A stretch of DNA of 64,000 bases from positions 47,926,001 to 47,990,000 of the forward strand of contig NC_043003.1 in assembly GCF_006345805.1 (NCBI RefSeq), read 5' to 3'. This document shows positions 40,305 through 41,385 of this stretch, in pieces. Both the position numbers and the translations under genes were made by a program. Numbering within the stretch: position 1 is the first letter of the stretch; the number at the start of each line of letters is the position of its first letter. The DNA comes from Octopus sinensis (lineage: Eukaryota). The notes under the pieces were generated by a model. It saw nothing but the letters and a program-made list of their open reading frames with translations. It was not told the origin of the DNA and made no database searches.

Positions 40305-41045
40305 TCATGCTTTACACTCGTGGAAGTTTATCATGGGTCCCTGAGTTAAATCAGAGAAAGACGACCTGAAAGAATAAGACTGAGATGACTGATACAACAT
40401 TTTCAGATTCTGACGATCTTCTTCGGTTAACGTTTCCAGCAAATCGTGCAAAGCATTTCGTCGGGTACGACACCTGGAGAAATTATTATGGTCCGGAGAT
40501 AACAGCTCTGGTGTAGGGTCGTCGGGAAAATTTATAGTTAACATTTCAGCAGATGGTGATAAGTTGGAAGAATCGAAGTTGGGAGAAGAAATTAACTGGC
40601 AGCTGGAAGTCGATGAAGTTGCCGCTGTACAGATGTTTGTTAAACAACTTGGTCGATTAGCATCTCGGCAAAGGGGTAAGCTGCTTCCACCAAGTCTTTC
40701 CTCCCGACTAATTTGTAGGGATAGTACTTTCGTAGTTTCTTTACAGCTTGTTGTACCACGATTTGGCAAGTTTTCTGAACTTTGCGACAGTTCTTGATCC
40801 GTATTTTCGGTACATTGTCTCAGATCTTCAGTTCCAAACTCGTCCAAGTCGTCATCCGACATGCTATCCACTTCACCATCACTATTCAAATTAGATTCAT
40901 TTCTGTGTAATAAAAAATCTCTGACGAATTTTTGGCGATTTTCTATACTTTCAAAGATATCAGCCATACCATTTCGTCGCATTCTACGAGGGTAAGATTT
41001 TAATGAAACCGACTCCCTTTTTTCTTGCTGTTCACCACCAGTCAT
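40305..41045 (-). CDS. Single-exon 246-aa Ser-rich, probably disordered protein with two PKI-like pseudosubstrate repeats
   Basis: Longest non-repeat ORF in the window (track 40305..41135); first ATG at 41045 (MTGGEQQEKRE...), TGA at 40305-40307. Internal repeat RRMRRNGMADIFESIENRQ / RCRTRRNALHDLLETLTEEDRQ resembles PKI GRTGRRNAIHDIL. Lies downstream of a promoter-like region. Confidence 0.8.
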   Translation of the reverse strand: MTGGEQQEKRESVSLKSYPRRMRRNGMADIFESIENRQKFVRDFLLHRNESNLNSDGEVDSMSDDDLDEFGTEDLRQCTENTDQELSQSSENLPNRGTTSCKETTKVLSLQISREERLGGSSLPLCRDANRPSCLTNICTAATSSTSSCQLISSPNFDSSNLSPSAEMLTINFPDDPTPELLSPDHNNFSRCRTRRNALHDLLETLTEEDRQNLKMLYQSSQSYSFRSSFSDLTQGPMINFHECKA

Positions 41046-41138
41046 TGTGTAATATGTATTAAAATATAAAATCAGTTCGGTTGAAAAGTATCTTCGGTTC
41101 AATCCTGTTGATGTTTGAGTGAAATAATTGAACAAGCT

Positions 41139-41218
41139 TCTGTTAGTTTGTTTGTATGAGAGAGAGATTTCTTAGCGTCAATACAGAACGAAGGCTTTTG
41201 TAGCACTAGACAGCTCAC
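41139..41218 (-). other. Putative 80-bp 5'UTR intron
   Basis: Minus-strand donor GAG|GTGAGC at 41218 and acceptor ...ctctctcatacaaacaaactaacag| ending at 41139. Confidence 0.35.
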
Positions 41219-41249
41219 CTCAAGTAATTGCTTAATAACTAGTCAGTAA

Positions 41250-41385
41250 GAATACCAATCGATTAAAAGCTTCGACTACCGGTTATCAGCCAATCAAAAC
41301 GCTCGTGTGCACCAGAAAACGTGACGTCAGCATAGAAGCGGGTTTTCCTCCCCACTTCACCTCCCGTATTAACGGACTTCCTCTT
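41250..41385 (-). promoter_or_regulatory. Proximal promoter with full CRE, two CCAAT boxes and an ETS-type core
   Basis: TGACGTCA at 41322-41329 (context TGCTGACGTCAC on minus); CCAAT at 41255-41259 and 41290-41294 (AGCCAATCA); ACTTCC at 41376-41381; CpG-retaining, 200-340 bp upstream of the ATG. Confidence 0.65.

Follow-up and report, generated by a model that had tools for sequence, protein, structure and literature searches.

We analysed a 64,000-nucleotide stretch of the Octopus sinensis genome (assembly GCF_006345805.1, contig NC_043003.1, positions 47,926,001 to 47,990,000), referred to below as the window. The subject of this study is a gene on its minus strand that encodes a protein of 246 residues (P0001), together with the upstream DNA, in which a full palindromic cAMP response element (CRE) is found. 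An initial annotation had described the locus as a negative-feedback module, in which a CRE-driven immediate-early gene encodes an inhibitor of protein kinase A (PKA). On balance, the sequence evidence tips toward one part of this proposal, namely that the uninterrupted gene encodes a mostly disordered protein with two motifs of the type known from the protein kinase inhibitor (PKI), which would block the PKA catalytic subunit by a decoy-substrate mechanism. The gene is separate from that of the canonical PKI, and it appears to be lineage-restricted. Induction by cAMP through the CRE, and hence the full loop, appears unlikely.

In the open-frame translation of the window, P0001 is encoded by an ATG-to-stop frame of 246 codons. 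This frame remains open in the 5' direction as far as 41171, with no ATG before 41045; the start codon is placed at 41045 because every relative of the protein begins with MTGE. As transcript evidence, we used contigs from four sequencing runs of four studies, the run type being guessed as RNA. The coding region and both flanks are collinear with the genome in contigs of all four runs, and no joint falls inside 39110-41276. The X4 contig, which stops at 41276, has no letter that differs from the window; the X14 contig ends at 41205, the contigs of X1 and X2 extend to 41630 and 41726, and X1 includes a further contig, of depth 5, at 41622-41826. Contig ends were not used as transcription starts, since there was no DNA run for comparison. 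Two joints, 39542/41830 and 40092/41822, were taken as spurious: their sides are 20-26 letters long and are located in CA-rich repeats. With the run type as guessed, the gene is likely to be transcribed, and it is likely to be a single unspliced transcription unit with a TATA-less CCAAT/CRE promoter. No upstream ATG is found in the putative leader.

The two PKI-like motifs of P0001 are described here relative to the P-site, the phosphoacceptor position. The pattern RRN[AG][ILMV] occurs twice in the six-frame translation of the window (approximately 128,000 residues), and both occurrences are in the P0001 frame, at residues 23-27 and 195-199. The N-terminal motif has Gly26 at the P-site, Arg at P-2, P-3 and P-6, Leu15 at P-11, and Met at P+1. 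We compared the motif register in six family members (P0001-P0006), i.e., in 12 motif instances. All 12 have Arg-Arg-Asn followed by Ala (11 instances) or Gly (one instance) and then by Leu or Met, and Ser or Thr is found at the P-site in none of them, so that every protein has two pseudosubstrate cores (Arg at P-3 and P-2, a non-phosphorylatable P-site, and a hydrophobic P+1). Outside the core, the N-terminal motif has Arg at P-6 in 6/6 members, while its P-11 position is Phe in the three distant relatives and Leu in the three octopus sequences; in the C-terminal motif, P-6 is Cys or Ser, and Tyr at P-11 is limited to the three distant relatives. Conservation within the family peaks at the C-terminal motif, RTRRNALHDLLETLT, where 12-13 of 15 positions do not vary in alignment A2, and the two motifs are the best-conserved blocks among relatives that are just 37% identical overall.

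In a preprint on Smoothened (10.1101/2021.07.05.451193), a PKI motif is characterised by a P-site that cannot be phosphorylated, Arg residues at both P-2 and P-3, a hydrophobic residue at P+1, an aromatic residue further upstream, and a helix nearby. Both motifs of P0001 show the core of these decoy-substrate features (a P-site other than Ser or Thr, the two Arg residues and the hydrophobic P+1), and this core is conserved among orthologues. The register of the N-terminal motif matches that of the PKI(5-24) peptide as printed in PMC5059767, and the C-terminal motif continues with His-Asp, like that peptide. P0001 is likely to be an inhibitor of PKA, judging from its sequence, because it has two conserved RRN(A/G)(L/M) cores that never contain Ser or Thr at the P-site and because the N-terminal motif of the family has Arg at P-6 and Phe or Leu at P-11, as does PKI.

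The family to which P0001 belongs is small. Among its relatives, only one is named, an uncharacterised protein from Octopus bimaculoides with an identity of 85% (BLASTP) to 89% (alignment), and five further unnamed relatives have an identical start (MTGE) and end (FHECKA). Word-indexed and exhaustive searches retrieved six relatives among 5.8 billion clusters and three among 1.84 billion representatives. Two relatives are close (80-89% identity) and the remainder are approximately 37% identical to P0001. With one named member as a guide, the family appears to be confined to cephalopods. A search of the octopus's own genome retrieved the P0001 gene and one 278-bp fragment copy on contig 16, and nothing more. 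The fragment (L002:1363-1731; G000:C16:55453101-55453328, +) has 84% DNA identity over the 278 bp and is bordered by repeats on both sides. It corresponds to the last 74 aligned codons, of which 59 are identical, four have synonymous and 11 have nonsynonymous differences; because of this excess of nonsynonymous over synonymous differences, the copy is probably a dead fragment. It keeps the residues SKW and LANA, for which the O. bimaculoides orthologue has SKL and LANA, and which are missing from the window gene. Since both the fragment and the orthologue keep these residues, the window gene has undergone two in-frame deletions.

The likeness to PKI is at the level of motifs. In Pfam, PKI is represented by PF02827, with a curated cut-off of 25 bits. 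It was the only family matched by 7/7 members, with scores of 14.2-20.7 bits and a best E-value of 5.4e-4, all of them sub-threshold. Most members match the profile best with their C-terminal motif; P0004 does so with its N-terminal motif (residues 10-31, aligned to profile positions 6-27). The canonical PKI of the octopus is encoded on contig 4, where its exon scored 50.6 bits in the genome search and 52.7 bits as a protein (P0008), which was the positive control of the Pfam scan. Its first coding exon (L003:1489-1641; G000:C4:15768406-15768540, +) has a translation that starts with MTDVDVNSHLQDFIASGRTGRRNAL. Because a clear canonical PKI is present on another contig, the window gene is not a PKI orthologue. 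The canonical exon shares the register of the N-terminal motif (...DFIASGRTGRRNAL), and hhalign placed the two in register with an E-value of 0.0025.

Several results weigh against a kinship of P0001 with PKI. Its own match to the Pfam PKI profile (residues 193-208) is at 14.2 bits, well under the cut-off; the hhalign probability for the PKI alignment is just 12%; BLASTP of P0004 against the canonical PKI exon produced no matches; and sequence searches of the PDB retrieved no PKI chains, whether the query was the whole protein, the family profile or either motif region. Specifically, phmmer with the whole of P0001 had no matches in the PDB, and the motif regions alone produced no matches and one chance match, respectively. 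The family profile matched alphavirus E1 and a photosystem subunit, which were rejected as chance hits (E > 3), and sub-threshold Pfam matches to DUF3678, TC1, DED and others were also taken as chance. Furthermore, the high-affinity determinants are incomplete in the window species: in the N-terminal motif, the P-site is Gly and P-11 is Leu instead of Phe; in the C-terminal motif, P-6 is Cys and P-11 is Asn. Because the determinants at the P-site, P-6 and P-11 are incomplete, binding may be weak, with an affinity well below that of PKI. For comparison, the dissociation constant reported in the Smoothened preprint is 823-911 nM for the Smoothened motif and 1.1 nM for PKI(5-24) (10.1101/2021.07.05.451193). 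The claim of the initial annotation that the gene encodes a PKA inhibitor thus holds in part, for the two conserved PKI-type cores; the protein is not a canonical PKI.

Outside the motifs, P0001 has little predicted structure. AlphaFold2, run with a five-sequence alignment, had a mean predicted local distance difference test score (pLDDT) of 41, with 205 of 246 residues below 50. Helices were predicted at residues 188-204 and 208-220, with a mean pLDDT of 81 for residues 201-210 and 78 for residues 211-220. The helices begin at the motifs and not before them, and confidence at the N-terminal motif is low. In the model, P0001 appears largely disordered apart from the helix directly after the C-terminal motif; since the rest of the chain is disordered, the conserved short motifs are its likely working parts. 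In the ESM Atlas, the best score for the whole protein was 0.78; a cluster of the PAK4 inhibitor INKA1, at 0.76, is a lead only, and residues 180-246 retrieved nothing usable.

Table 1. Features of the P0001 gene and its promoter in the window
Feature	Position	Strand	Basis or remark
Uninterrupted coding region, 246 residues and stop (P0001)	40305..41045	-	Open reading frame and translation
N-terminal PKI-like pseudosubstrate motif RRMRRNGM, residues 20-27	40965..40988	-	Residue register; hhalign; Pfam stretch in P0004
C-terminal PKI-like pseudosubstrate motif and following helix, residues 191-207 (RCRTRRNALHDLLETLT), P-site Ala198	40425..40475	-	Conservation; Pfam; AlphaFold2
Likely 5' leader	41046..41276	-	X4 contig cover, no letters differing; gene-strand reading
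Likely 3' untranslated region (at least this long)	39110..40304	-	Contiguous with coding region in contigs of four runs
Full palindromic CRE, TGACGTCA	41322..41329	.	Sole copy in 64-kb window
Two CCAAT boxes, 41255-59 and 41290-94; second reads CAGCCAATCA	41255..41294	+	Not above chance
ETS-like core GAGGAAGT on gene strand (CTTCCT at 41377-82)	41376..41383	-	Not above chance
CpG-undepleted domain holding the gene and ~5.5 kb upstream	39001..47000	.	Observed/expected 0.76-1.23

The description of the promoter in the initial annotation was accurate, as was that of the uninterrupted coding region: the perfect CRE, placed there about 280 bp upstream, lies 277 bp upstream of the start codon (A at 41045), the two CCAAT boxes and the ETS core are located beside it, and all of them are in a CpG-retaining domain (Table 1). 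A second TTCC is found at 41344-49. The observed/expected CpG ratio is 0.76-1.23 in each 1-kb bin of the domain, 0.43 across all 64 kb, and 0.0-0.5 in the majority of the bins on either side; the domain is the single long CpG-undepleted stretch of the window, and its DNA looks unmethylated. As a null model, we used shuffled sequences. The presence of one CRE in a window of this size is unremarkable (0.42 expected; at least one in 35/100 shuffles), and its presence within 500 bp upstream of this ATG was reproduced in 163 of 20,000 dinucleotide shuffles (0.8%). In the same shuffles, two CCAAT boxes were found in 4176, one ETS core in 6521, and all three kinds of element together in 9 of 20,000. 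The CCAAT boxes and the ETS core are ordinary, because shuffles contain them so often. The CRE is not repeat-borne, since the surrounding 601 bp (41150-41750) have no second copy in the 2.72-Gb genome. It is identical in sequenced organism A; because only 7 substitutions separate organism A from the window over 39110-41045, this identity is uninformative. No convincing open reading frame of a divergent gene was found in the repeat-filled region 41400-46500. Two other structures are located upstream. An inverted repeat with perfect 14-bp arms, GAGCAATTAATGAC / GTCATTAATTGCTC, and an 18-nt spacer occupies 41590-41635, about 260 bp beyond the CRE; as folded DNA it has an energy of -13.7 kcal/mol (z -4.67; equalled in 0/200 shuffles), and it is bordered by half-CREs at 41586-90 and 41620-24. 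A 157-bp tandem repeat (2.7 copies, 82% matches) is found at 43718-44128, within the CpG-undepleted upstream domain.

In the 3' flank, read on the gene strand, the 1195 nt that follow the stop codon contain three UUAUUUAUU nonamers (39149-57, 39153-61 and 39453-61) and five UAUUUAU words. Neither count was reached in any of 300 dinucleotide shuffles, and, among 420 windows of the same size from the 64 kb, 0.7% reached the count of nonamers and 1.4% that of UAUUUAU. The flank thus has the AU-rich elements expected of an immediate-early gene, and the nonamers fit an mRNA that is likely to be short-lived.

If P0001 acts as its motifs suggest, the free PKA catalytic subunit would take up each motif in its active-site cleft; the Arg pair would contact the acidic patch, and Ala or Gly would fill the phosphoacceptor position. 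This decoy mode would be that of PKI, the type I regulatory subunits, Smoothened and ARHGAP36, as described in PMC5059767 and 10.1101/2021.07.05.451193. The two motifs are approximately 170 disordered residues apart, and this arrangement could add avidity or could hold two catalytic subunits; avidity from a second PKI-like site has been proposed for Smoothened in the preprint (10.1101/2021.07.05.451193). Finally, cAMP and CREB, acting through the CRE, would raise the level of the inhibitor and PKA would be damped; this is the weakest step of the mechanism.

One alternative explanation of the locus is the full loop, in which PKA activates CREB, CREB rapidly induces the gene through the CRE as an immediate-early gene, and the product shuts off PKA. 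In its favour, the sole CRE of 64 kb is found 277 bp upstream of the ATG, a position that 0.8% of shuffled promoters reproduce. The uninterrupted gene, the three AU-rich nonamers, the CpG-undepleted domain and the PKI-type motifs are also consistent with this scheme, and a review cites a mammalian precedent, CREB feedback involving PKIB (PMC11083500). Nevertheless, we consider the complete scheme doubtful. The region 41000-41800 contains no TATA box, GC box, serum response element or AP-1 site, except for a lone TATA-like word on the gene strand at 41767-72, 438 bp beyond the CRE. According to PMC5740062, promoters with a proximal CRE and no TATA box bind CREB constitutively and show no preferential induction in mouse neurons. 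In addition, the X1 and X2 contigs cross the CRE; provided that the runs are RNA, transcription would in part begin upstream of it. Finally, at 0.8% per promoter, a site of this kind is expected by chance at many genes of a genome, and the identity of the CRE in organism A adds little. In another explanation, P0001 binds the PKA catalytic subunit, and the CRE either is incidental or sets only basal expression; the protein would then be a constitutive or tissue-specific buffer of the free catalytic subunit, without feedback. We give this explanation a realistic, although less than even, chance: the promoter is of the TATA-less CCAAT type, its numbers of CCAAT boxes and ETS cores do not exceed chance, a CRE appears in 35/100 shuffles of the window, and constitutive CREB binding with poor induction is what PMC5740062 describes for proximal CRE promoters that have no TATA box. 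However, the AU-rich nonamers suggest a regulated turnover of the mRNA, and the only CRE of the window adjoins its only clear host gene.

A more skeptical explanation is that the likeness to PKI is convergent or coincidental, and that the basic clusters have another role, for example as nuclear import signals or as docking or decoy sites for a different basophilic kinase (such as PKG or a PKA-like paralogue), with the PKA catalytic subunit not being the target. This would account for the sub-threshold PKI scores and for the high-affinity determinants missing in the octopus motifs, and the genome does contain more PKA-like catalytic genes: a PRKX-like one is on C2692, and C9497 and C12762 have further ones. 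We consider it improbable, because Asn at P-1, Ala or Gly at the P-site and Leu or Met at P+1 are invariant in both motifs, which exceeds the needs of a basic import signal; the N-terminal motif also keeps the P-6/P-11 register, and the C-terminal motif has His-Asp as in PKI(5-24), as printed in PMC5059767. With respect to the kinases themselves, the PRKX-like exon and two genes with CTYTLCGTPEYLAPE in the activation loop (L007, L009 and L010, on C2692, C9497 and C12762, respectively) are possible alternative targets. The canonical octopus PKA catalytic subunit exon is on C9328 (L008). Among entries from other molluscs, the cuttlefish PKA catalytic subunit (P0176) has a 4-residue duplication, and that of scallop (P0135) is clean. 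The most elaborate form of the preferred decoy-substrate reading would be a bivalent, cephalopod-restricted PKI-like protein that clamps both catalytic subunits set free from a single holoenzyme, whose gene is induced by cAMP/CREB through the CRE and whose AU-rich mRNA is rapidly cleared, so that a delayed, self-limiting and lineage-specific brake on PKA would exist beside the ancestral PKI; we regard this combination as very unlikely.

Comparison with known systems helps to place P0001 as a candidate decoy-substrate inhibitor. Like PKI alpha, beta and gamma, it has the RRNA(L/I) core, a non-phosphorylatable P-site, Arg at P-6 of the N-terminal motif (with Phe or Leu at P-11 in the family), and disorder, and the N-terminal motif is at a near-equal distance from the MT... 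start. In contrast to PKI, it has 246 residues and two motifs instead of one, it remains below the Pfam cut-off, and the canonical PKI is elsewhere in the genome. PKI is a protein of about 75 residues in which a leucine-rich nuclear export signal follows the inhibitor site; no signal of this kind was seen by eye after either motif of P0001. The inhibitor site of the PKA type I regulatory subunit is likewise a pseudosubstrate with Arg-Arg and with Ala or Gly at the P-site; unlike that subunit, P0001 has no cyclic-nucleotide-binding or dimerisation domain, according to the Pfam scan. As in the Smoothened C-tail and ARHGAP36, a short decoy-substrate motif is found within a larger, partly disordered protein, and the preprint on Smoothened describes a second, candidate PKI-like motif, to be compared with the two of P0001 (10.1101/2021.07.05.451193). 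In ARHGAP36, a PKI-type motif is functional within an unrelated protein, according to PMC5059767. P0001 has no sequence kinship with either of these; they have a receptor and a GAP-like domain, whereas no domain is recognised in P0001. On this evidence, P0001 would work like a PKI-motif protein, yet it is outside the PKI family by the Pfam threshold.

With respect to transcriptional negative feedback on cAMP signalling, ICER and PDE4 are known examples. The feedback through PKIB in beta cells has the same proposed logic, in that the output of the pathway raises an inhibitor of the pathway; here, the promoter motif alone corresponds to it. The review describes feedback inhibition of CREB signalling via PKIB in mammalian beta cells and the action of HIF1alpha on the PKIB promoter, so that the idea of a pathway-induced PKI is not wholly new (PMC11083500). 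In searches of the literature on octopus and mollusc PKI, on the UniProt accession of the named orthologue, and on cephalopod immediate-early genes, no paper on the P0001 gene or on a two-motif mollusc PKI-like protein was found; a 2025 preprint on octopus immediate-early genes covers creb and egr1 only.

Several other features were recorded in the window. A tRNA-Gln (anticodon CTG) at 29224-29297 (+), found with Rfam (51.3 bits) and with ARAGORN, may be a gene or a tRNA-derived repeat. Two overlapping transposase frames of the Tc1/mariner type at 60673-61696 (-), with matches to HTH_Tnp_Tc3_2 (46.6 bits) and DDE_3 (42.7 bits), represent a broken transposon remnant. The long open frames at 8494-8925 (+), 9293-9670 (-), 11275-11976 (-) and 18376-19113 (+) share the peptide word LQ(L/S)DALPN(A/T)NH; they are copies within a single repeat family, and GC and CpG are locally high there. 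A Pfam scan of two of the four, 11275-11976 and 18376-19113, produced no matches.

Long-term plasticity in molluscs depends centrally on PKA and CREB, and endogenous decoy-substrate inhibitors determine the extent and the duration of the action of the free catalytic subunit. If the interpretation of P0001 is correct, a second, lineage-restricted inhibitor with two motifs, beside an intact canonical PKI, would represent a new tuning of an old pathway in large-brained animals. It should be noted that P0001 is a small protein, easy and cheap to assay. Should the CRE be functional, cAMP signalling would have a compact transcriptional brake at this locus; otherwise, the gene would still be an uncharacterised candidate regulator of PKA.

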